Below, in pieces: positions 3,305 to 56,880 of a stretch of 64,000 bases of DNA. The first letter of the stretch is position 1. Each line of letters opens with the position of its first letter. Under the pieces are notes generated by a model that was given only the letters and a program-made list of their open reading frames with translations, ran no database searches and had not been told where the DNA came from. Source of the stretch: Patescibacteria group bacterium (GTDB lineage: Bacteria > Patescibacteriota > UBA1384 > CAJBMM01); assembly GCA_041660565.1 (NCBI GenBank), contig JBAZWC010000002.1, positions 20,315-84,314 of the forward strand, given 5' to 3'. A program made the position numbers and the translations under genes.

Positions 3305-4021
3305 ATGTCCGGACACTCTAAATGGGCCACCACCAAACATCAGAAAGCCGTTACCGACGCCAGACGTGGAGCGGCGTTTACCAAAATTGCCAATATGATC
3401 ACCGTAGCCGCACGTGAAGGTGGCGATGTGGAATTTAATTTCAAACTGCGCCTGGCGGTGGAAAAAGCCAAAGCGGCCAGTATGCCCAAAGACAACATTG
3501 AACGAGCAATTGTGCGCGGATCGGGCAAAGGTGATGGAGCCAATAAATTAGAAGAGCTGACCTACGAGGCCTACGGCCCAGGCGGATCTGCCATGATTAT
3601 CACCGCTTTGACTGATAATAAACTTAGAACATATACCGACATTCGGGCGATAATGAACAAGGCGAACGGCCGCATTGCCGAAGCTGGTTCGGTGATGTAC
3701 TTGTTTAAGCATAGTGGCGAGATTATCGTTTCGCACGCACCGGAAAAATCAGACGAAGTACAGCTAATTGCCATAGACCAAGGCGCAGACGATGTTGAAA
3801 GCGATGAAGGGCTAACCCGCGTCATCACCGCCGTACCGGATCTGCAAAAAATCCGTCAGGGTCTACTTGATGCGGGATTGACGGTGGATGACGCCAAGTT
3901 GCAATGGATCGCCAAAACTCCGCATATTTTATCAGATGAAGATTTAGCAAAATTAGATAGATTAATTGAACTATTAGATGAACTAGACGATGTCACCGAA
4001 GTAGCAACAAACGTTGGATAG
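3305..4021 (+). CDS. yebC: YebC/PmpR family DNA-binding transcriptional regulator
   Basis: N-terminus MSGHSKWATTKHQKA is the family signature. RBS AAGGAAGGAG lies 6 nt before the ATG at 3305; the longer GTG-3284 version in the ORF track is unlikely. Confidence 0.85.
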   Translation: MSGHSKWATTKHQKAVTDARRGAAFTKIANMITVAAREGGDVEFNFKLRLAVEKAKAASMPKDNIERAIVRGSGKGDGANKLEELTYEAYGPGGSAMIITALTDNKLRTYTDIRAIMNKANGRIAEAGSVMYLFKHSGEIIVSHAPEKSDEVQLIAIDQGADDVESDEGLTRVITAVPDLQKIRQGLLDAGLTVDDAKLQWIAKTPHILSDEDLAKLDRLIELLDELDDVTEVATNVG

Positions 4022-4128: not shown

Positions 4129-4168
4129 AAAAGAAAACGCCCCGTGCCATACAGGCCACGGGAGCGTT
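4129..4168 (-). terminator. rho-independent terminator (GC hairpin CCCGTGGCC..GGCACGGGG + TTTTCTTT on minus strand), copy 1 of a duplicated 39-nt unit
   Basis: A near-identical 39-nt sequence recurs at 4494-4532. It lies directly downstream of minus-strand gene 4181..4408. Confidence 0.55.
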
Positions 4169-4493: not shown

Positions 4494-4532
4494 AAAGAAA
4501 ACGCCCCGTGCCATACTGGCCACGGGGACGTT
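4494..4532 (-). terminator. rho-independent terminator, copy 2 of the duplicated 39-nt unit
   Basis: Same hairpin and T-tract, downstream of minus-strand gene 4547..4879. Confidence 0.55.
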
Positions 4533-5282: not shown

Positions 5283-5481
5283 TGCAATGTCCTTTCATTA
5301 ACTAAAATGAGAGGCTGCCACAGTATCAGTATTAGCATATTGTCACATATAGAATAGAATGTCAATATGTTATTCGTTCGGTTTAGAGGTTATACTACAA
5401 TGTGAAGTCGGATTAGGTTCGCCACAAAGCGGGCGGACATGCTAGTCCGCCCCTACACCACAGGGAAGAACAAGGAGGAAA

Positions 5482-6009: not shown

Positions 6010-6153
6010 GCACGAAATACGAAACAAATTCAAAATTAAAAAAGTTTAAAAATTTCAAATTTCAAATTTCAAATTTTCATTATCGCCAAACAAAACGTAT
6101 TGGATTCTGCCATCCACAATGACACCGCACACTTTTTAATCTAGAATAAAGTT

Positions 6154-7122: not shown

Positions 7123-7141
7123 GTAAATCTCACGAGCATCG

Positions 7142-7215
7142 TAGGGGCAATACCTCGTTTCACTTCGGAAACCAGAGGTTAACACGAATTGCCCGCGGGC
7201 GGTTCATGAACCGCC
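7142..7215. mobile_element. MITE-like element, family C (termini GTAGGGGC...GCCCCTAC), containing a 60-nt core shared with 30146-30205
   Basis: The core gtaggggc[a/g]atacctcgtttcacttcggaaaccagaggttaacacgaat[t/c]gccc is repeated at 30146. Its right end is a GGGCGGttcatgaaCCGCCC hairpin. Confidence 0.5.
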
Positions 7216-8660
7216 CCTACGGATTTTCTAAACATTTGTCTTTTCGATAAACTCCACCAAATAAAAATTAATATTGCCAAATACCACGGGAATAACCCGC
7301 CTTTTTGCCATGTAAATGATGCGTAGGGAATTTGACTCCCCAAGGCAATCACCCACAAAAACCCATGCAACGGATAGTACAAAATTGAGCTGGTAATTAA
7401 AGTAATTTTTAGCGGAATAGCCATCAAAATCACTCCCGCCAATCCAACTAACATCATTAGTGGAATCAGTGGCAAAATAACCAAATTACTTAAAGGTGAG
7501 ATGATGGTTAGCTGACCAAATGCACCGAGCAAATATGGTAAGGTGGCAATTTGGGCGCCCACGGTTTGGCTAAATATCAAACGCAAGCTGTCTAGCCGTA
7601 GCCATTTGGTTTTAGGATAGAGCATCGGACCGATTTCAACCAAACCAAAAAATGCCAAAAACGACAAAATGAATCCGGCGTCATCTTTAACCGCAAACGG
7701 ATTAATTATTGCCATAATAGTGGCCACGCTACAGATAAGTAGCAAACTGTGTGGCGCACGACCAATCAATTTACCCAACAGCATCACCCATGCCATTACC
7801 GCCGCGCGAACGATAGATGATGGCGCACCAGTAAAAATTACGAACAGCAAGACCAGCGCTGCGGAAAAACCAATCGCCCATTTTTTGTGCACCAAACCGG
7901 CCAACACTATTGGCCACAAGCTAATAATGGTTAAGTTATAGCCCGAAACGGCGGTCAGGTGCGAAATGCCGAGGGTGCGAAACTGGTCGGTAATTGCTTT
8001 GGGCAACAACCCCGATCCGCCAAATAGCAATCCAAACAACAAACCGGATTCGTTGTTGGGCAAAGCAATTTGATTGCGTGACTTAATGTAATCTTTAAAT
8101 TGATAAAGATAGTGAGTCAGCGGATTGCCGCGGTTAGTACTGGTGGTTTGAAATTGAGTGATTGTGGTTTGGTATTTCGCACCGCGCACCCGCCAATATC
8201 GCGCACCATCAAATTTACTGGTAGCGGTAATTTCAGATAATTTGCCCGAGAATTTGACTTCATCACCGTAGTTTAGGGTGGCGGATTGCGGGAAATAGGC
8301 CAGAATCTGCGGGTGTGATGGAATGTTGGTGACAGTTAAGACTGCTTGTTTATTATACAAACCATCGTTAAGCGGCGTAGCAAGATGCCCGGTAATTTGC
8401 ATGGCAGATCCGGTTGGAAGATTCACGTTCCAGCGGTTAAAATTCGTTTGCCATAATCCAATTCCGCCAATCAATCCAATTACACCAATTATTCCAATAC
8501 GCACCCTTTGATTTGGCCAAGAAAGCACCAAGCTAACCAACAGCCCTAAGCCAAGCCAAAAAAGTGGCAGACCGGCGGGTACAAATTCGGCTACCACGCA
8601 GCCACCAATAAATCCGAGACACAAAAAACAAATCAGATTAAGCCGATCTCGCAGTTTCAT
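7179..8660 (-). CDS. comEC: ComEC/Rec2-family competence membrane protein (DNA internalisation channel; no metallo-beta-lactamase domain)
   Basis: 493 aa polytopic membrane protein carrying the family motif GISHLTAVSGYNLTII. Confidence 0.6.
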   Translation of the reverse strand: MKLRDRLNLICFLCLGFIGGCVVAEFVPAGLPLFWLGLGLLVSLVLSWPNQRVRIGIIGVIGLIGGIGLWQTNFNRWNVNLPTGSAMQITGHLATPLNDGLYNKQAVLTVTNIPSHPQILAYFPQSATLNYGDEVKFSGKLSEITATSKFDGARYWRVRGAKYQTTITQFQTTSTNRGNPLTHYLYQFKDYIKSRNQIALPNNESGLLFGLLFGGSGLLPKAITDQFRTLGISHLTAVSGYNLTIISLWPIVLAGLVHKKWAIGFSAALVLLFVIFTGAPSSIVRAAVMAWVMLLGKLIGRAPHSLLLICSVATIMAIINPFAVKDDAGFILSFLAFFGLVEIGPMLYPKTKWLRLDSLRLIFSQTVGAQIATLPYLLGAFGQLTIISPLSNLVILPLIPLMMLVGLAGVILMAIPLKITLITSSILYYPLHGFLWVIALGSQIPYASFTWQKGGLFPWYLAILIFIWWSLSKRQMFRKSVGAVHEPPAGNSC

Positions 8661-8758
8661 AGCTCTACAATATCAGAAAACGGATGACGGAGGACAGAAG
8701 ACGGAGGACGGATCGTCGTTATTGTCAAACCCCCAACCCGTGAATCCGGAAAATAATA

Positions 8759-8882
8759 TGTCATTTCGACCCTAGGAGATTGTCAAATCGACTATGTTGG
8801 AGAAATCTGAGAAAGAATCCCTTCCAGTCTTTTCTGGAGATTTCTCCACCCTCGACTTGAATGTCGAGGAGTCGAAATGACA
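8759..8882. mobile_element. MITE-like element, family A copy 1 (TIR TGTCATTTCGAC / GTCGAAATGACA; inner IR GGAGAAATCT / AGATTTCTCC); flanked by outer IR GTGAATCCGGAAA / TTTCCGGATTCAC
   Basis: Perfect 12-bp terminal inverted repeats seen in sequence. The same architecture recurs at least 8 more times in the window. Confidence 0.7.
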
Positions 8883-9009
8883 AACCGTAGATATTTTTAT
8901 TTAATTTCCGGATTCACGTCCCAACACCCCTAATCCCCCTAAACTCCCTTACACCCCTACACAAAACCATCTTTTTCTGCCATAATTGAAGCTGACAAAC
9001 GGAGGAAAA

Positions 9010-9494: not shown

Positions 9495-9619
9495 TGTCAT
9501 TTCGACCCTGCGAGCATTGCCGAGCTGTTGGAGAAATCTCCAAGAAAAACCGGAAGGGATTCTTTTCTAAGATTTCTCCACCGTGGTCGGGTTGACACCC
9601 TTCCCGAGTCGAAATGACA
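9495..9619. mobile_element. MITE-like element, family A copy 2
   Basis: TGTCATTTCGACC...GAGTCGAAATGACA with internal GGAGAAATCTCC / AGATTTCTCCACC. Confidence 0.7.
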
Positions 9620-9634
9620 AAGAAAATAAGAAGG

Positions 9635-9664
9635 TTGACAAAATGTAAAGGATACTTTACATTT
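9635..9664 (+). promoter_or_regulatory. dnaK promoter region: -35-like TTGACA followed by a perfect palindrome AAATGTAAAG-gatac-CTTTACATTT (candidate operator); TATAAT at 9685-9690
   Basis: 10-bp perfect inverted-repeat arms seen in sequence. It does not match CIRCE, HAIR or the CtsR box. Confidence 0.4.
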
Positions 9665-12326: not shown

Positions 12327-12587
12327 TGTCATTTCGACCCGAGGAGGTTGTCAAATCGACTACGTTGGAGAAATCTCAAGAAAGAATCCTGTCAATAATT
12401 TTAAATTTTAAAGGCTAAATTTTAAATGAATAAGTACCGAATGATTAAATTTTAAATGGTTCCTTATTTAGTCATTTAAAAATTGGCAACCATTCATTTG
12501 AAATTAAAAATTGAAAATTAAAAATTCTAATTGTTTTAGATTTCTCCAACGTAGTCACGCTGCGGCGCTCCTCGGGTCGAGATGACA
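12327..12587. mobile_element. MITE-like element, family A copy 3, carrying a nested ~140-bp AT-rich element (family B) at about 12395-12537
   Basis: Family A termini are intact. The inserted block aattttaaattttaaaggctaaattttaaatgaataagtaccgaatgattaaattttaaatggttcc... is about 95% identical to the block at 20899-21035. Confidence 0.7.
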
Positions 12588-13597: not shown

Positions 13598-13680
13598 TTG
13601 TCATTCCGGATTTAATCCGGAATCTATATAAAAAAAATTTCCATCATTTCAAATTTCAAATTTCAAATTGTAAATTATCT
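13598..13680. repeat. CCGGAATGACA-family hairpin (TGTCATTCCGGATTTAATCCGGAAT) followed by a (TTTCAAA)n heptamer tract
   Basis: Short palindromic element related to the family A TIR. The tttcaaatttcaaatttcaaattg tract recurs at about 6040, 20250, 50075 and 54265. Confidence 0.5.
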
Positions 13681-13782
13681 ACATTTAGTCAAAACCGTGC
13701 TTAAAAGAGAACCGTCCCCTATTTCTGCCTTTCCATCCTCCATTCTCTATCCTCTATCCTCCAAATGTGCTATAATAATAAT

Positions 13783-15150
13783 ATGAAATTAAAACTGGTA
13801 TATGCCCCAAGCCCAATCTTAAATCGCAAAGCCATCAGTGTGCCAAAAATCACGCCAGATTTGGTGAAGCTAGCCAACAATATGCTGGAAACAATGGTAG
13901 ATGGCAATGGCATCGGCCTAGCCGCTCCCCAAGTTAATCAGAATGTTCGTTTGATCGTTGTGGGAAATTCACCCGAAAAAGAGGGTGAAGATTACATCCC
14001 AACCACCATTTTATTCAATCCTAAAATCACCAAATTCTCGTCGGAAAAAGAGTTCGCCACCGAAGGCTGCTTGTCTATTCCGGGAATTACCGGCGTGGTT
14101 GAACGATCAAAGTCGATTACGGTTGAATTTCTTGATGTTGATGGAAATAAGCAAACGCTAAACGCAAGCGACTTGTATGCGCGCGTAATTCAACACGAGG
14201 TTGACCACTTGGAAGGCGTACTGTTCACTGATCGTCTAAGACACTATTCGATCGTCTTTTACGGCACCTCCGATTTTGCCGTACCGGCGCTAGAAGAGTT
14301 GCTTCTGCACCCACAGTTTGAACTTAAAGCGATTGTAACCGAAACCGATAAACCGGCTGGCCGCGGACATCAGCTAACCGCGTCACCGGTGAAAAAATTC
14401 GCCCTTGATAATAAAATCAAAGTGCTGCAGCCAATGTCGCTTAATTGCCAACACAAAAACGCCACCAAAGCCCAGTCAGCCACAAATGCTTTTCAAGACT
14501 TAAGCAAAATTAAGCCTGATTTTCAGATTGTGGCCAGTTATGGAAAAATCATCCCGCAAGAATTTTTGGATTTAGCAAAACTGATCAACCTAAATATTCA
14601 CCCATCACTATTGCCAAAATATCGTGGCGCCAGCCCAATTCAATCTGCCATTTTGCACGGTGAAACTCAAACCGGCGTGGCAGTGATGGCAATGGCGGCG
14701 GAAATGGACGCCGGCCCGGTAGTAACAATGTATCGCCACAATATCGACCCGGACGAAAATGCAGATCAGTTATCAAAACGGTTGGCTGAGTCTGGCGCAG
14801 CGCAACTGATTATGACCTTAGAGGAAATGTTAAGCAATAAATCGTCACTGTATGAGCAAGACCACACCAAAGCCACTTTCACCAAAAAGTTTGAAAGCGT
14901 GGACGGATTAATTGATTGGACCAAATCTCCAATAGATTTGCATAACTTTGTCCGCGCGCTAACCTCTAAACCGGGCGCGTTCACCCAGATTGATGGCCAA
15001 AACGTCAAAATACTGAAAACCCATTTGACAGAGGGTAAATTGACCATTGATTTGGTGCAATTACCCGGTAAAAAACCATTTTCAATGTCGGATTTGAAAA
15101 ATGGATATCCAAAAATGTATCAAGAATTATTAAATCAATCCAATAAGTAA
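13783..15150 (+). CDS. def-fmt: fused peptide deformylase (N-terminal ~160 aa) - methionyl-tRNA formyltransferase (C-terminal ~295 aa)
   Basis: One uninterrupted ORF. Def motifs GIGLAAPQV, EGCLS and QHEVDHLEG are followed without a stop by Fmt motifs IVFYGTSDFAVPALEEL and HPSLLPKYRGASPIQ. TATAAT lies 7 nt before the ATG at 13783 (leaderless?). Confidence 0.75.
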   Translation: MKLKLVYAPSPILNRKAISVPKITPDLVKLANNMLETMVDGNGIGLAAPQVNQNVRLIVVGNSPEKEGEDYIPTTILFNPKITKFSSEKEFATEGCLSIPGITGVVERSKSITVEFLDVDGNKQTLNASDLYARVIQHEVDHLEGVLFTDRLRHYSIVFYGTSDFAVPALEELLLHPQFELKAIVTETDKPAGRGHQLTASPVKKFALDNKIKVLQPMSLNCQHKNATKAQSATNAFQDLSKIKPDFQIVASYGKIIPQEFLDLAKLINLNIHPSLLPKYRGASPIQSAILHGETQTGVAVMAMAAEMDAGPVVTMYRHNIDPDENADQLSKRLAESGAAQLIMTLEEMLSNKSSLYEQDHTKATFTKKFESVDGLIDWTKSPIDLHNFVRALTSKPGAFTQIDGQNVKILKTHLTEGKLTIDLVQLPGKKPFSMSDLKNGYPKMYQELLNQSNK

Positions 15151-15209: not shown

Positions 15210-15653
15210 ATGTTACGCATCCGCCTAGCCCGACGTGGCCAAAAACATCAGCCGACTTATCGCTTAGTAGTTGCTGAGCACACCCGACCAACCACCGGTA
15301 AGTTTGTCGAGATTTTGGGTCACTACATTCCGACCACAAAACCAAAAGTGTTCGAAGTTAAAAAAGACCGCGTTTTGTACTGGATTGAGCGCGGCGCTCA
15401 GCCAACCGATACTGTGCACAATTTGTTAGTTGATGCCGGTGTGTTGACAGACAAGCGCGACATTCGCTACGCTAAAGAAAAGATCGAGGAGGACAAAGCA
15501 GAGAAGGTCGAAAAAGTCGAAGACGCCGCTAAAGATACAGTGCCCGAGGAAGTTCCAGAAGAATCAGTTGATAATCCTGTTGAAGACGCCACCGAAGAAA
15601 AAGTTGAAGAAGCTACCGAAGAAGTAGTTGAACCCGACGCCAATCAGTCATAA
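15210..15653 (+). CDS. rpsP: 30S ribosomal protein S16 with an acidic C-terminal extension
   Basis: MLRIRLARRGQKHQPTYRLVVAE is the canonical S16 N-terminus. RBS AAGGAAAAG. Confidence 0.85.
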   Translation: MLRIRLARRGQKHQPTYRLVVAEHTRPTTGKFVEILGHYIPTTKPKVFEVKKDRVLYWIERGAQPTDTVHNLLVDAGVLTDKRDIRYAKEKIEEDKAEKVEKVEDAAKDTVPEEVPEESVDNPVEDATEEKVEEATEEVVEPDANQS

Positions 15654-15676
15654 ACATATCAAAAAATGGAGATAAG

Positions 15677-16066
15677 ATGACGCAAATGTCAGACCAAGAG
15701 TTCGTCCAAACGATCGTTAAGGCGATTGTGGATCACCCCGAGGATGTCAAAACCGAGCGTGTGGTAGACGACAAAGGAATTCTAATCTCGCTAACGGTAA
15801 ACGAAGAGGATATGGGAAAAATAATTGGTAAAGGCGGACGAACCGTCAACTCAATCCGCAAATTATTGCATGTTCTAGGTGCCAAAACCGACGAACGTAT
15901 CAATCTAAAAATTTACGAGCCAGATGGCCAAGAGGTTTCCACCCCAACCGAAGACTCAGTAGTTGAAGAACCAGAGAAAAAAGAGGAAGTCGTTGAAGAA
16001 AGCGCTCCAGAAAAACCCAAAGATGAGCCGAAACTAGACGATGTCCCAACCGACGTATTAGTCTAA
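15677..16066 (+). CDS. KH-domain RNA-binding protein (YlqC family), acidic tail
   Basis: GKIIGKGGRTVNSIRKL KH motif. Canonical position between rpsP and trmD. Confidence 0.7.
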   Translation: MTQMSDQEFVQTIVKAIVDHPEDVKTERVVDDKGILISLTVNEEDMGKIIGKGGRTVNSIRKLLHVLGAKTDERINLKIYEPDGQEVSTPTEDSVVEEPEKKEEVVEESAPEKPKDEPKLDDVPTDVLV

Positions 16067-16809: not shown

Positions 16810-16925
16810 TGTCATTTCGACTCGGGGAGTGCGTCGGCACGACCTCGGTGGAGAAATCTAAATAAAAATCCTTTCCAGTTCTTGACGGGATCTCTCGCCC
16901 CGCTTCGCGGTGGTGTCGAGATGAC
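16810..16925. mobile_element. MITE-like element, family A copy 4
   Basis: TGTCATTTCGACTCGG...GTCGAGATGACA with inner GGTGGAGAAATCT. Confidence 0.65.
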
Positions 16926-16965
16926 ATATTAAAAAAAAATCAGGGTAGCAAGTCTTACAGACCTA

Positions 16966-20177: not shown

Positions 20178-20339
20178 CGTCATTTCGACTCGGGGAGAGT
20201 GTCGACTCGACCACGGTGGAGAAATCTGAGAAAGAATCCGTTCCATCATTAAAAATTTCAAATTTCAAATTTCAAATTCTCGCTTAAAATTCCTCCACCC
20301 TCGAGACAATCCGCCAGCTGACGGACGTCGGGGATGACA
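20178..20339. mobile_element. MITE-like element, family A copy 5 (with an internal TTTCAAA heptamer tract)
   Basis: CGTCATTTCGACTCGG...GTCGGGGATGACA. Confidence 0.65.
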
Positions 20340-20833: not shown

Positions 20834-20851
20834 ATCACCTCTCGCTCATAT

Positions 20852-21095
20852 TGTTTCGACTCGGAAAGCGCAACAACAGTGGTGGAATTTGTATAAACAA
20901 TTTTAAATTTTAAAGGCTAAATTTTAAATGAATAAGTACCGAATGATTAAATTTTAAATGGTTCTTTATTTAGTCATTTAAAAATTGGCTACCTTTCATT
21001 TAAAATTAAAAATTAAAAATTTATTATTCTCGTTATATAGATTTCTCCAACATGGGCGGACATATGAGTCCGCCCCTACATGGTCGAGATGACAA
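20852..21095. mobile_element. MITE-like element, family A copy 6 with a nested family B element (about 20899-21035) and a family C fragment (GGGCGGACATATGAGTCCGCCCCTAC) at its right end
   Basis: Second occurrence of the ~140-bp AT-rich family B block. A mosaic of three repeat families. Confidence 0.65.
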
Positions 21096-22658: not shown

Positions 22659-25298
22659 TTAACATTTAGAGAAACCACAATTTTCACATTTTTGGCATCC
22701 TTCAATGAATCGAAATGTCGCCATGCCACAATCCGGGCAGATATCGGCGTTTCCTTTTCTCTCTGGCTGGTCCATTTGCACCGTTTCGGTTTTTTCGGGC
22801 ATTACTTCGATACCTTGCTTGTCAGATTCATGCTCTTTTAGCACCTTTGACACAGCATCGGCTAATGAACGAATGCGCATCGCCCCAAAACCGGTTGACC
22901 CTGCGCCACCAATACCGGTTAGCTGTTCAACCACATTTTGAGCAATACGCTCAGAAGTGTAGTGGGTAGGGATACGGAAGGTAAGGGAAATTAATCGTCC
23001 AATTGCTTCTGCGTCGGCAGTGATATCTGAACCGGCATGCCCCACGTTAATAAATACCTCAAAAATATTTTGATTCTCGTCTTCGTTAATAGAAATAAAC
23101 GCTTTACCCACCGGCGTATTTACTTTATAGGTGCGACCGGTTAAAACGTGAGGACGCGGGCGTAGGGTAATCGGTTGGCTATCGGCTAAATCGATAACCG
23201 AGGCACTGGTCTTGCCCGCCATTTTATCGTAATAAGAATTCTCTTTTTTAGTCTCTAAAATCTGCTTTTCTCGGCTACCATCGCGATAAATTGTGATACC
23301 TTTGCAATTTGTCTCGTAAGCCATCCAATACGCCGTGCGAACATCTGCTACCGTAGCGCTGTTTGAAAAGTTAATAGTCTTGGAGATGGCATTGTCAGTA
23401 TATTTTTGCAACGCGGCCTGCATCTTTAGATGCCACTCTGGCGCAATATCCCCAGCCACCACAAACACCTTCTTTAATTCTGCCGGAATTTGCTCCAGCG
23501 CTTGAATTGAGCCGTTATTACTCTGAATTTTCTCTAAAATGTCATCGTTGTGTAATCCATGGTCCTTAAGTGCCTGCAAAAAGTGCGGACTGGTCTGAAA
23601 AATTCGTTTTCCTTCGATGGTATTTTTGGCGTACGCAAGGGCGAACAACGGTTCGCAACCAGACGAACAATCCGCCAACATAGAAATTGTACCGGTAGGG
23701 GCAATGGTGGTTCTGGCGCCGTTACGCGGTTTGATTTCGCCTTTTTTATTGTAAATTGAATCCGGATACAATGGGAACGGCCCGCGCTCTTTTGCTAACA
23801 GTACCGAAGCGTTATCGGCCTCTTTTTGCATAAATTTCATTAGCTTTTCGCCAACTTTTAACCCCTCATCGGTATTATATCCAACACCTAACAGCAACAA
23901 CGCATCGGCAAAACCCATTATTCCAAGCCCAATACGGCGAATGCTGCGAGTCATTTTTCGCACTTCATCTATTGGATATTCATTCATATCTAACACATCG
24001 TCCAAAAATCGGGTGGCGGTATGGATTGCCTCTCTCATTCCGTCCCAATCAAAATCTTTTCCATTCACATATTTTGCCACGTTAATACTACCCAACGTAC
24101 AAGCGTCATAAGGTAACAGAGGTTGTTCTCCGCACGGATTTGTAGCTTCAATTTGGCCGAGTTTCGGTGTTGGATTTGCACGAGATTCGTTAATACGATC
24201 CAAAAAGATCATGCCCGGATCGCCGTAGTTCCACGCTAATCGGGTAATTAAATCGAACACTTTTTTGGCATTAAGATGACCGGCGATGGTTTTGTCATGC
24301 GGATTAACTAAATCATAACCATAACCGGGTCGGCTTTCGTTGCACCACTCTCTCAGTCGCTCAACCACTTTGTCCAACAATACCGTTTTAAGATCAATAT
24401 CTCGGGTTTGGTGCGCGGTTCTGGCTTCTTCAATAATCTGATCATAATCGATATCTTTTTCGTATGTTGCCGGCAAACCCTCGGCATCAATTTTAACTTG
24501 ATTAAAGAACTGTTCGGTTACCGTAACCGAGATATTAAAGTTGGTCAGCGAAAACTCATCCACTTTATAAATGGAGAACAGTAAGATATCTGGGTGATTG
24601 TAATTCAAAATACCCATATTGGCGCCACGGCGCACCCCACCTTGACGAACCGACGAAGCGATATCGTTATACATCTGCATAAACGAGATGGGGCCGGTGG
24701 AATGACCCTTGGATGATTTTATCACCGTGCCTTTTGGACGCAGGCGTGAAAACGAAAAACCGGTGCCACCGCCAGATTTGTGAATTTTGGCCATGTCGGT
24801 AGCGGTTTTCAAAATACTGGTTAAATTATCTTCTATTGGCAACACGAAACAGGCTGAAAGTTGCTGTTCCGGTTTGCCCGCATTTAACATCGTTGGAGTG
24901 TTCGGCATAAACTGCTGACATGCCATCATTGTATAATATTTTCTAGCGGTATCTAAATGCGATTTTTCCGGATTTTCTCCAAATTGGCGCTCGGCAGTGG
25001 CTACATTATAAGCAACCCGCCAAAACATATCCCGAGCGGACTCTTGTGGATTTCCCTGCTCGTCACGAACCGCATAACGAGTCTTACCAATATACCACGC
25101 GTTATCACTTAAACTAGGCTCAGGTAGGTCAGCTGGAGCTTTGGGGATGTCTTTACCAATTTGGTACAACTGCTCAACCGATGACGGCGCAGTAACGATG
25201 TCGTCCTTAAACAGTTCGGTGGGTTGTTCTTGATTTGTGGGCATATCGCGCCTCCTTTGTTTTACTGTTTTGTTGCCATTTCGAGGTATTCGCATCAT
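22659..25298 (-). CDS. nrdJ: adenosylcobalamin-dependent ribonucleotide reductase (class II, NrdJ) with a C-terminal CxxC zinc ribbon
   Basis: 879 aa. Active-site NPCGEQPL and the motif HKSGGGTGFSFSRLRPKG. C-terminal CPDCG...CQKCENCG. Confidence 0.85.
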   Translation of the reverse strand: MMRIPRNGNKTVKQRRRDMPTNQEQPTELFKDDIVTAPSSVEQLYQIGKDIPKAPADLPEPSLSDNAWYIGKTRYAVRDEQGNPQESARDMFWRVAYNVATAERQFGENPEKSHLDTARKYYTMMACQQFMPNTPTMLNAGKPEQQLSACFVLPIEDNLTSILKTATDMAKIHKSGGGTGFSFSRLRPKGTVIKSSKGHSTGPISFMQMYNDIASSVRQGGVRRGANMGILNYNHPDILLFSIYKVDEFSLTNFNISVTVTEQFFNQVKIDAEGLPATYEKDIDYDQIIEEARTAHQTRDIDLKTVLLDKVVERLREWCNESRPGYGYDLVNPHDKTIAGHLNAKKVFDLITRLAWNYGDPGMIFLDRINESRANPTPKLGQIEATNPCGEQPLLPYDACTLGSINVAKYVNGKDFDWDGMREAIHTATRFLDDVLDMNEYPIDEVRKMTRSIRRIGLGIMGFADALLLLGVGYNTDEGLKVGEKLMKFMQKEADNASVLLAKERGPFPLYPDSIYNKKGEIKPRNGARTTIAPTGTISMLADCSSGCEPLFALAYAKNTIEGKRIFQTSPHFLQALKDHGLHNDDILEKIQSNNGSIQALEQIPAELKKVFVVAGDIAPEWHLKMQAALQKYTDNAISKTINFSNSATVADVRTAYWMAYETNCKGITIYRDGSREKQILETKKENSYYDKMAGKTSASVIDLADSQPITLRPRPHVLTGRTYKVNTPVGKAFISINEDENQNIFEVFINVGHAGSDITADAEAIGRLISLTFRIPTHYTSERIAQNVVEQLTGIGGAGSTGFGAMRIRSLADAVSKVLKEHESDKQGIEVMPEKTETVQMDQPERKGNADICPDCGMATFRFIEGCQKCENCGFSKC

Positions 25299-25300
25299 TT

Positions 25301-25426
25301 TGTCATTTCGACCCTATGAGAGTGTCAACTCGAATATGTTGGAGAAATCTGAGAAAGAATCCGTTTTCCAATTCTCTTTTGAGATTTCTCCACCCTCGAG
25401 ACAATGCTCGAGGAGTCGAAATGACA
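25301..25426. mobile_element. MITE-like element, family A copy 7
   Basis: TGTCATTTCGACCCTATG...GAGTCGAAATGACA. Near-identical inner repeats to copy 1. Confidence 0.7.
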
Positions 25427-38746: not shown

Positions 38747-38790
38747 GACCCGTCGCGACGATTGCGGCGGGTCTGATTCTTTTTTACATA
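38747..38790 (+). terminator. rho-independent terminator
   Basis: GC-rich hairpin followed by TGATTCTTTTTT. Confidence 0.6.
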
Positions 38791-38827
38791 GATTCCGGAT
38801 CTAGTCCGGAATGACAGCTAGTAATAT

Positions 38828-39539: not shown

Positions 39540-39627
39540 GTAGGGGCGGGTCTCGCCCCGCCCGCGGGCGGAACGCTGAGCGTCCCATTGCCCCGCTCAG
39601 TGTGGCGGACATGTTAGTCCGCCCCTA
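39540..39627. mobile_element. MITE-like element, family C (GTAGGGGCGG ... GGCGGACATGTTAGTCCGCCCCTAC)
   Basis: 10-bp terminal inverted repeat GTAGGGGCGG / CCGCCCCTAC. The internal GC-clamp hairpin GGGCGGACATGTTAGTCCGCCC is also present as fragments at 5430-5450 and 21052-21075. Confidence 0.55.
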
Positions 39628-39670
39628 CGAAGCTCATTATGCAGGATTTTGTCCGAGATGACAGCACGGA

Positions 39671-43460: not shown

Positions 43461-43603
43461 ATCAGAAAATAGATGATCGATTTTTCGCGTTCGAACGGAG
43501 AGAGAACTAATCAGAACAACGCCGGAAAGTTCTCGTTTCACTCGAACAAGAATGTATAACCTGTCATTCCGGAAAAAATCTCTGAATCTATATAAAAAAA
43601 GAA

Positions 43604-50021: not shown

Positions 50022-50165
50022 TGTCATTCCCGCGAAGGCGGGAATCCAGTCTATAAAAAATCTCCCACAATTTCAAATTTCAAATTCATTATTAAGATTT
50101 CTCCACCCTCGAGACAACGCTCGAGGCTCTACCCGTAGGCGACGCCCGGAGGGAGTCGAAATGAC
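50022..50165. mobile_element. MITE-like element, family A variant (TGTCATTCCCGCGAAGGCGGGAATCC ... GGGAGTCGAAATGACA)
   Basis: The left arm equals the reverse complement of 31738-31766. Contains a TTTCAAA heptamer tract and AGATTTCTCCACCCTCGAG. Confidence 0.6.
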
Positions 50166-50180
50166 AGCCGCTGGAACTAA

Positions 50181-54175: not shown

Positions 54176-54290
54176 TGTCATTCCGACCACGTAGACCTCC
54201 GACTCTACAAGCCGATATGCCTAGAGAGAGAATTCTAAGAAATAAACCCCCTCCATCATTTCAAATTGTAAATTTCAAATTTCAAATTGC
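54176..54290. repeat. family A-related element fragment (TGTCATTCCGACC...) with a TTTCAAA heptamer tract
   Basis: Shares the left-terminal motif and the heptamer tract. Right end unclear. Confidence 0.4.
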
Positions 54291-56811: not shown

Positions 56812-56845
56812 TGTCATTCCGAACTAGATCCGGAATCTATACGCA
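56812..56845. repeat. CCGGAATGACA-family hairpin (TGTCATTCCGAACTAGATCCGGAATCTATA)
   Basis: Seen in sequence. Confidence 0.5.
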
Positions 56846-56851
56846 TAAGAA

Positions 56852-56880
56852 TAGGGGCGGGACATCGCTGTCCCGCCCCT
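56852..56880 (-). terminator. terminator hairpin AGGGGCGGGACAGCGATGTCCCGCCCCT (family C-like GC clamp) + T-rich tail on the minus strand
   Basis: 10 nt downstream of the stop of 56891..57370. Confidence 0.5.

Follow-up and report, generated by a model that had tools for sequence, protein, structure and literature searches.

The intergenic regions of a 64-kb stretch of DNA from a Patescibacteria group bacterium (assembly GCA_041660565.1, contig JBAZWC010000002.1, positions 20,315 to 84,314; this whole stretch is called the window below) are densely occupied by hairpin repeats. We propose that these elements are likely Ssn-related repeats, named after the small GIY-YIG nuclease Ssn, of the SRM/NTS kind and of the CGTC/TGTC-tagged branch of the repetitive extragenic palindromes (REPs). 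The modules of their most conspicuous form, called family A here, are a long-loop variant of the SRM, and the doublet is a form of it in a new host group that the published search motif misses. The unit that is copied is the doublet, as with the REP doublets known as REPINs. A first-pass annotation of the window had flagged the stretch 8739-8920 as one of many MITE-like elements (MITE, miniature inverted-repeat transposable element) with 12-bp terminal inverted repeats. Its observation of dense intergenic repeats was confirmed, as the 12-mer TGTCATTYCGRC, allowing at most one mismatch on both strands, gave 23 matches compared with 1.30 ± 1.23 in shuffled sequences, none of which reached 23, and the elements are indeed non-coding, hairpin-forming and non-autonomous. 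Its view that such a density is unusual for a streamlined genome is not supported, since the highest motif counts given by Chenal et al. (2025, Nat Commun 16:2388, PMC11893778) are those of reduced symbionts, for example Rickettsia and Wolbachia.

Reading of every site revealed eight family-A elements of 117-261 nt, three other doublets and at least eight single hairpin modules, all of them intergenic. The family-A elements start at 8759, 9495, 12327, 16810, 20178, ~20850 and 25301 (A1 to A7 in this order), with a hybrid at 50022, and the further doublets lie at 31633-31762, 34419-34504 and 35525-35607. Eight of the copies listed in the first-pass annotation thus belong to family A, with the corrections that 50022 is a hybrid and that the left end at 20850 is degenerate, but 54176 turned out to be a solo left module. 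Some of its "short relatives" are single modules, but the three further doublets had been counted among them, and the site at 36905 is degenerate. Complete family-A elements are delimited by TGTCATTTCGAC on the left and GTCGA(A/G)ATGACA on the right, and the first-pass claims of an inner inverted repeat (GGAGAAATCT/AGATTTCTCC) and of (TTTCAAA)n tracts were confirmed. The copies are homologous from end to end, including the central loop (56-85% pairwise identity), and the asymmetry of this loop (GAGAAAGAATCC..TTCC) reveals that the 9495 copy is inverted (minus orientation). No target-site duplication flanks any copy, as judged from the flanks of A1-A5 and A7 and from a direct-repeat search. A detector built from the tag, a 5-bp stem, the complementary stem and a C returned 21 sites, 18 of them genuine, compared with 2.8 ± 1.7 in shuffles. 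The window modules carry stems of the types ATTTC, ATTCC, ATCTC and ATCCC and heads of TGTC, CGTC or AGTC.

At either end, a family-A element has an oriented module that consists of TGTC, ATTTC GAC, a variable GC-rich hairpin, G(G/T)(A/G) GAAAT and CT. The right half is a module of identical type on the opposite strand, and what had been taken for a 12-bp terminal inverted repeat is the pair of outward-facing module heads. Family-A modules are 45-50 nt long, with a 5-bp base stem and a variable distal hairpin, and two of them on opposite strands surround a conserved loop of ~25 nt. In general form, a module comprises an unpaired TGTC and a stem starting with AT, then a loop or distal hairpin that varies freely, and lastly the complementary stem with an ATC(T) tail. 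The short "relatives" are 28-nt single modules with a minimal loop, such as TGTC-ATTCCGGAT-TTA-ATCCGGAAT-CTA. When folded as single-stranded DNA (ssDNA), these single modules form clean 8-9-bp hairpins with TGTC unpaired (z score ~ -4.6); the one at 13599 has a 9-bp stem, an unpaired TGTC and a folding energy of -8.0 kcal/mol (z -4.6). The whole of A1 folds into a 4-way junction of -30.2 kcal/mol as ssDNA (z -6.6), and its RNA fold reaches -53 kcal/mol (z -5.8); complete doublets form such a stable junction as RNA, too (z -5 to -7).

We scanned one genome per species with the pattern TGTCATTTCGAC-N(20-45)-GGAGAAATCT and obtained at least 120 loci with family-A boxes, compared with ~2 expected by chance. 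They are distributed over ~16 phyla, including six lineages of the candidate phyla radiation (CPR) and the cultured Mucilaginibacter and Zunongwangia; solo halves and single modules are common, and viral contigs gave 5 matches in 2.9 million. The right arms were left unconstrained by this pattern, and 74 non-redundant doublets from other genomes were analysed for covariation. In 31 of the 74, the terminal stem triplet of the right arm differs from GAA. Of these 31 arms, 16 have an inner triplet that compensates perfectly (permutation mean 1.6, maximum 7), with six compensating stem types, CTC/GAG, GTC/GAC, TCC/GGA, CCC/GGG, ATC/GAT and CTT/AAG, and none of the 31 is able to pair with the invariant left head. 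Copy A4 at 16810 in the window behaves likewise, with ATTTC/GAAAT on the left and ATCTC/GAGAT on the right. Because the non-GAA arms cannot pair with the fixed left head while their inner triplets compensate, each half is its own hairpin, and the conserved structure is the within-half hairpin on its own strand, not a long terminal stem. A structured RNA, suggested by a first fold with a cloverleaf-like 4-way junction and covarying side hairpins, was dropped as a candidate for lack of an Rfam match and in view of the per-half hairpins favoured by the cross-phylum covariation.

All-against-all clustering of 3,915 open reading frames (ORFs) from the at least 120 loci listed revealed one element-linked family, a GIY-YIG protein of ~95 aa, and no transposase or HUH cluster among them. 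The GIY-YIG gene lies in the central loop, between the left and right modules, in loci from Nitrospirota (L066), Lentimicrobiaceae (L076) and Thermodesulfobacteriota (L011), and between two complete doublets in Mucilaginibacter (L014); it is the only ORF seen between family-A ends. A tblastn search with the L066 protein against plasmid-labelled records retrieved a Neisseria gonorrhoeae locus that encodes a 94-aa protein and carries 16 NTS copies around it within 2.6 kb. This protein, SsnA, is 42% identical to the L066 protein (E 2e-26) and 45% identical to the L076 protein (E 2e-25). Since this identity extends over the full length, the proteins enclosed by family-A boxes are Ssn homologues. 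Solved structures and NCBIfam provided no useful family name for the Ssn-like protein. Among the best 120 of 4,412 matches, the ORF calls of 74 homologues run into translated modules, where CHFDRREKS corresponds to TGTCATTTCGACCGGAGGGAGAAATCT and QDFSLRSK* to AGATTTCTCGCTTCGCTCGAAATGA. At a further locus (P0086), a forward family-A-type module ends 6 nt before the ssn start codon and arrays of reverse modules follow downstream. Samples of one organism differ there by one 76-nt reverse-module unit in the tandem array (L133 ~3590-3665 compared with L140), and module arrays therefore grow or shrink at the population level. The IS200/IS605- or PATE-type partner envisaged by the first-pass annotation is not supported, as no HUH/Y1 protein recurs at the loci while the GIY-YIG homologue does, and published accounts tie the repeat type to Ssn and not to RAYT/TnpA (PMC11893778, PMC3733652).

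These features closely resemble a system described recently. According to the main text of Chenal et al. (PMC11893778), the NTS (CGTCATTCCCGCGMAVGCGGGAATCYRG) is an oriented form that is generalised as the SRM, and SsnA, a single-domain GIY-YIG nuclease of 94 aa (cd10448), binds the NTS solely in its ssDNA form and cuts a few nucleotides upstream of it. SRMs lie near 71% of ssn homologues, and an Ssn homologue is encoded in 81% of the genomes with more than 200 SRMs; the NTS loop can be replaced or extended with cleavage retained, and the NTS-ssnA-NTS arrangement is likened to an insertion sequence (PMC11893778, main text). The window repeats share with SRM/NTS the unpaired (C/T)GTC head, the stem starting with AT, the C after the palindrome and the intergenic, high-copy occurrence. 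Pairs with outward heads and a spacer of ~50 nt are likewise found next to ssnA in N. gonorrhoeae, and in other phyla SsnA homologues are flanked or enclosed by family-A boxes. They differ in that the window unit is a ~120-nt doublet with a conserved loop and modules of 45-50 nt, in a metagenome-assembled genome of CPR/Patescibacteria, a group absent from the main text of PMC11893778, and in that the window holds no ssn. The gene is placed inside a heads-outward doublet in L066 and L076, whereas the heads face the gene in Neisseria. The published SRM string, HGTCWYN(0-2)YYVSBRHN(0-5)WNVSBRGN(0-2)RNCYNB, has three matches in the window (31735-31762, 35577-35607 and 50022-50049) compared with 0.13 expected, and two of them are TGTCATTCCCGCGAAGGCGGGAATCCAG, identical to the NTS consensus except for base 1. 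Loop length and one position in the stem keep family-A and ATTCCGG modules from matching this string, which serves as an aid to searching and not as a definition.

An older description also fits. In CGTC-tagged REPs, an unpaired CGTC, frequently replaced by TGTC, precedes a stem of 8-9 bp that starts with AT and encloses a loop of 4-5 nt, and a short tail follows; most are arranged as inverted dimers. They include the Neisseria dRS3 and the Rickettsia RPE-4/6 repeats and lack a dedicated transposase (Di Nocera et al. 2013, BMC Genomics 14:522, PMC3733652). The single modules at 13599, 30230, 31762, 38816, 50022 and 56812 fit this definition exactly, and the family-A modules deviate from it in loop length. 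The likeness extends to the tag, the stem, the loop, the inverted dimers, the location after coding regions and the missing RAYT (REP-associated tyrosine transposase) partner. However, the CGTC-tagged REPs are 20-40-bp units listed from five phyla with no CPR host (PMC3733652), and the loops of family A are long and structured. Family A resembles the REPIN-RAYT system (Bertels and Rainey 2011, PMC3116915) in that an inverted doublet of hairpins is what replicates, target duplications are lacking and the presumed enzyme has a single gene elsewhere in the genome, but it differs in the tag, the hairpin sequence and the enzyme class, which is GIY-YIG here and an HUH tyrosine transposase there. Bacterial MITEs such as Correia, ERIC and RUP are of similar size to family A, share its terminal inverted repeats and intergenic location and can likewise form long hairpins. 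Unlike them, family A has neither a target-site duplication nor a DDE parent, and it is modular, with independent half hairpins.

To examine turnover, we compared the window with two syntenic relatives, L124 (DnaK 85% identical) and L121 (DnaK 83% identical, a 1.04-Mb contig). No module was found across the 22-kb syntenic region of L124. The grpE-dnaK spacer, which holds A2 in the window, is 222 nt long there and 80 nt long, with no module, in L124, and the genes that flank A3 (12327) in the window abut each other in L124. L121 has other modules (ATTCTGG/CCAGAAT and others) at other sites, for example in the dnaK 5' untranslated region (UTR). A dnaK promoter with an embedded palindrome is kept in the window, L121 and L124, and it anchors the site comparison because A2 sits just upstream of it. 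As L124 is module-free and L121 has different modules elsewhere, turnover of the elements takes place over times comparable to genus-level divergence. Neither of the refuting conditions set by the first-pass annotation, identical orthologous positions in relatives or absence elsewhere, holds, so that mobility or turnover stands. When a lineage-specific loop pattern was searched in metagenome contigs, it matched one related 1.2-kb contig (L126) and, by chance, one unrelated contig. This closer relative carries the same family-A type inside an outer repeat and the same hetero-doublet as that at 31633-31762. A family-A copy lies within the outer repeat, CGTGAATCCGGAAA(A/T)TA...TAATTTCCGGATTCACG, in the window (8739-8756 / 8901-8918) as well as on the reverse strand of L126 (~895-915 / 1073-1099); the repeat might represent a hairpin favoured as a target, or else the element in a longer form.

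Based on these comparisons, a mechanism can be outlined. By analogy with the Neisseria and Wolbachia systems, the module would fold while the DNA is single-stranded during replication, repair or DNA uptake, and an Ssn nuclease of ~95 aa would bind the folded module and nick a few bases 5' of its head. The window copies would be ORF-less, non-autonomous relatives of the SRM-ssn-SRM units found in other phyla, gained or lost since the lineage split from the sequenced relatives, and the Ssn that acts on them would be encoded elsewhere in the genome. Multiplication of the doublets might proceed by nuclease-initiated copying or by recombination between modules. It is possible, and we suggest it only tentatively, that the doublets are the ORF-less, REPIN-like offspring of an insertion sequence-like unit made up of a head-out SRM, ssn and a head-out SRM, with the GIY-YIG Ssn as the mobiliser. 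If this were true, a GIY-YIG single-strand nuclease, and not a DDE, HUH or serine/tyrosine recombinase, would drive a class of bacterial mobile DNA, one that would span at least 16 phyla and could saturate the intergenic space of a ~1-Mb CPR genome. In the main text of PMC11893778, Ssn as a mobiliser is only a hypothesis; to it we add ORF-bearing and ORF-less versions with identical ends, the homology of whole doublets and the module-free sites in a relative.

Several observations weigh against the Ssn interpretation. The 64-kb window holds no ssn or other GIY-YIG gene by Pfam or by tblastn with two Ssn-like proteins, and among the CPR relatives a GIY-YIG gene was seen in L121 only; its product shares just 29% identity with SsnA, and no modules flank the gene. 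The published SRM string permits loops of 0-5 nt only and so leaves family-A modules unmatched. Lone family-A half-modules are weak as ssDNA (-2.6 to -7.9 kcal/mol, with three of six no better than shuffles), and the complete doublet favours, as ssDNA, a 4-way junction that buries the TGTC heads. The relatives L124 and L121 are too distant for base-precise junctions, and the comparison yields no precise filled-versus-empty junction. The 76-nt polymorphism at P0086 is the gain or loss of a tandem unit, which recombination alone could yield, and the ssn gene checked across samples (one gene, eight samples) has a single fixed context, which looks more like that of a domesticated single-copy gene than of an active insertion sequence. 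The idea of ssn as a multi-context gene was accordingly rejected, since a single context shared by eight samples does not support recent transposition of the P0086 copy. In L121, the 84-aa GIY-YIG gene (15520-15925) lies between direct duplicates of the 5' portion of a tRNA gene (GGGTCGTTAGCTCAGCCTGGTTAGAGCACC), and it looks like a homing-type insertion into a tRNA gene.

Among other explanations, the modules could be host-retained sites and not selfish ones which, together with a resident Ssn, mark the chromosome so that imported ssDNA is cut and, as in Neisseria, the recombination of DNA taken up is tuned in an organism reliant on DNA uptake. SsnA/NTS lowers transformation ~5-fold in Neisseria (PMC11893778, main text), the ssn locus checked is single-copy in a fixed context, and a ComEC competence gene adjoins A1. 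By analogy with Neisseria ssDNA restriction, a role in handling imported DNA is thus plausible. On the other hand, a resident Ssn is putative in the source genome, the functional data come from Neisseria alone, and the modules are dispensable in L124, whose syntenic region has none. We therefore regard host retention as rather doubtful as the main explanation; it is also compatible with a selfish origin and does not exclude one. A role mainly at the RNA level, in which 3'-UTR hairpins stabilise transcripts, terminate transcription or act as small RNAs, would agree with the placement of 13 module heads 0-39 nt past stop codons on the sense strand, with very stable RNA folds (z -3.6 to -7.6) and with the argument that many REPs are transcribed (Di Nocera 2013, PMC3733652), but a compact genome puts any intergenic insert near a stop codon. 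In Rfam 15, only tRNAs reached the gathering score in the window and 16 loci, and the matches at permissive thresholds were noise. None of the 18 terminator-like sites in 8-26 kb, a stretch that covers seven of the eight family-A elements, overlaps an element, and A-runs, not T-runs, come after the element tails, contrary to the terminator role considered in the first-pass annotation. Moreover, the doublets are found in either orientation, some of them upstream of genes (A1, A7, 31633 and 50022), the covariation backs half hairpins on each strand and not a long RNA stem, and the characterised Ssn has no RNA binding (PMC11893778, main text). An RNA-level role is thus unlikely to be the principal one.

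Two further explanations invoke conventional transposases. The inverted doublets without target-site duplications resemble REPINs, and GTAG-tagged, RAYT-associated types of REP-like hairpins are also present in the window; both points speak for REPIN- or PATE-type elements moved by an IS200/IS605-like HUH tyrosine transposase (RAYT/TnpA) encoded elsewhere. We consider this improbable, because the tag is TGTC/CGTC and not GTAG, CGTC repeats have no dedicated transposase according to Di Nocera 2013, Pfam finds no HUH/Y1 domain in the window, and Ssn homologues, not HUH proteins, cluster near the elements at the at least 120 loci. The perfect 12-bp terminal inverted repeats with TGT...ACA ends and the small, multi-copy, intergenic nature of the elements speak for reading them as classical MITEs, that is, deletion derivatives of a DDE-transposase insertion sequence with TG...CA terminal inverted repeats that move by cut-and-paste. 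This reading is very hard to sustain and close to refuted: the seven clean copies lack target-site duplications, no transposase with matching ends occurs at the at least 120 loci, solo halves and single modules are frequent, and the stems covary within halves.

The assignment to Ssn-related repeats places a conspicuous repeat family of uncultured Patescibacteria in the Ssn/SRM system of 2025, and indicates that a widespread long-loop doublet form of the SRM escapes the published search string. It also supplies exact sequences for assaying Ssn specificity in vitro (TGTCATTTCGAC...GGAGAAATCT, with the stem variants ATCTC/GAGAT, ATTCC/GGAAT and ATGTC/GACAT), and the ORF-bearing and ORF-less versions of one element are material for asking whether the repeats are mobilised by their own Ssn. 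The assignment further accounts for numerous annotation artefacts, namely spurious ORF extensions and small "hypothetical proteins" such as those with ...CHFDRREKS, VISTEGRNL or QDFSLRSK.

The individual family-A elements vary in detail. A1 (8759..8882, 124 nt, plus strand) has the termini TGTCATTTCGAC and GTCGAAATGACA and consists of the modules 8759-8809 (+) and 8837-8882 (-), heads outward, around the central loop GAGAAAGAATCCCTTCC...; the outer inverted repeat around it (CGTGAATCCGGAAAATAA / TTAATTTCCGGATTCACG) is 94% complementary. A2 (9495..9619, minus strand) begins 8 nt past the grpE stop codon and lies directly upstream of the conserved dnaK promoter. A3 (12327..12587, plus strand) has the right head TGTCATCTCGAC and an AT-rich insert of 135 nt (12394-12528) in its central loop, and A4 (16810..16926, plus strand) has its compensated stem in the right module 16887-16926 (-). 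A5 (20178..20339, plus strand) has a CGTC head, (TTTCAAA)3 in the loop and a degenerate right module (ATCCC...GGAA). In A6 (20850..21094, plus strand), the left head is degenerate and a 135-nt AT-rich insert occupies 20896-21030, and A7 (25301..25426, plus strand) is 85% identical to A1. The inserts of A3 and A6 are copies of one palindromic element, 93% identical in host arms that differ, and represent either a nested insertion or loop cargo swapped by recombination. The hybrid doublet (50022..50166, plus strand) joins a left NTS-type module at 50022-50049 (TGTCATTCCCGCGAAGGCGGGAATCCAG) to a right family-A module with an extra hairpin at 50096-50166 (-).

Among the other doublets, the hetero-doublet at 31633..31762 has its heads outward and combines a long-loop module (31633-31704, +, ATCCCCGA/TCGGGGAT) with an NTS-type module (31735-31762, -, TGTCATTCCCGCGAAGGCGGGAATCCAG). 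The degenerate doublet at 34419..34504 has an AGTC head that overlaps the stop codon of hisS, and is followed by a (TTTAAAA)n tract; the doublet at 35525..35607, between convergent genes, is made of two short modules, of which the right one (35577-35607, -) matches the published SRM string. Single SRM-type modules are located at 13599..13626 (+), where TGTC-ATTCCGGAT-TTA-ATCCGGAAT-CTA is followed by ATATAAAAAAAA and a (TTTCAAA)n tract, at 30203..30230 (-, TGTCATTCCGGGCTTGATCCGGAATCCAG), which abuts a 69-nt GTAG-headed repeat, at 38789..38816 (-, TGTCATTCCGGACTAGATCCGGAATCTAT), separated by 11 nt from a minus-strand gene's stop codon, and at 56812..56839 (+, TGTCATTCCGAACTAGATCCGGAATCTAT), 10 nt past a stop codon. 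Degenerate single modules occur at 36905 and at 43562..43590 (+, TGTCATTCCGGAAAAAATCTCTGAATCTATATAAAAAAA). The solo left module (54176..54290, +) reads TGTCATTCCGAC...GAGAATTCT, followed by a (TTTCAAA)n tract, and the right half is absent.

The window contains further repeats. GC-rich REP-like hairpins tagged with GTAG (GTAG GGGCGGAC..loop..GTCCGCCC) are found at 5432-5456 (-), 7196-7220 (-), 21055-21079 (-), 39540-39565 (+), 39604-39628 (-) and 56851-56880 (+). They are of the other REP superfamily, usually tied to RAYT transposases, which coexists here with the TGTC-type modules, and in A6 one copy makes up the distal hairpin within the right arm. The 69-nt repeat, at 7131-7199 and 30137-30205, is 91% identical between its copies, begins with GTAGGGGC and has the inner hairpin ACCTCGTTTCACTTCGGAAACCAGAGGT; each copy begins ~10 nt past a stop codon, the second abuts the SRM module at 30203..30230, and a partial third lies at ~43500-43550. 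The (TTTCAAA)n / (TTTAAAA)n tracts (6044-6086, 13645-13672, 20247-20281, 34515-34549, 50069-50090 and 54253-54288) often come right after an SRM tail (ATCTATAAAAAA...CCATCA) or in a doublet loop. A hairpin-containing 39-mer (AAAGAAAACGCCCCGTGCCATAC(A/T)GGCCACGGG...) is present at 4130-4168 and 4494-4532, in copies 364 nt apart and 92% identical.

Pfam scans of ~60 ORFs in the window detected no transposase, HUH/Y1 or GIY-YIG domain, in agreement with the first-pass annotation as regards transposases, and the genes are exclusively housekeeping ones of Patescibacteria type, for example grpE-dnaK-dnaJ, a def-fmt fusion, trmD, uvrB, nrd and tRNA synthetases. The def-fmt fusion is a single ORF (13765-15150) with peptide deformylase and methionyl-tRNA formyltransferase domains. 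The left head of A7 is 2 nt from the called ATG of a ribonucleotide reductase ORF (22659-25298, minus strand), in which the first Pfam domain begins at residue 63; the element may provide the 5' UTR, unless translation really starts further downstream. The promoter-like region of dnaK lies at 9635-9663 in the window, at ~9795-9825 in L121 and at ~9933-9962 in L124. Its sequence, TTGACAA-N-ATGTAAAG-(G/A)ATA-CTTTACAT-T, has the -35 and -10 hexamers on either side of a perfect 8-bp palindrome, which does not correspond to the CIRCE consensus and could be a heat-shock operator of this lineage.

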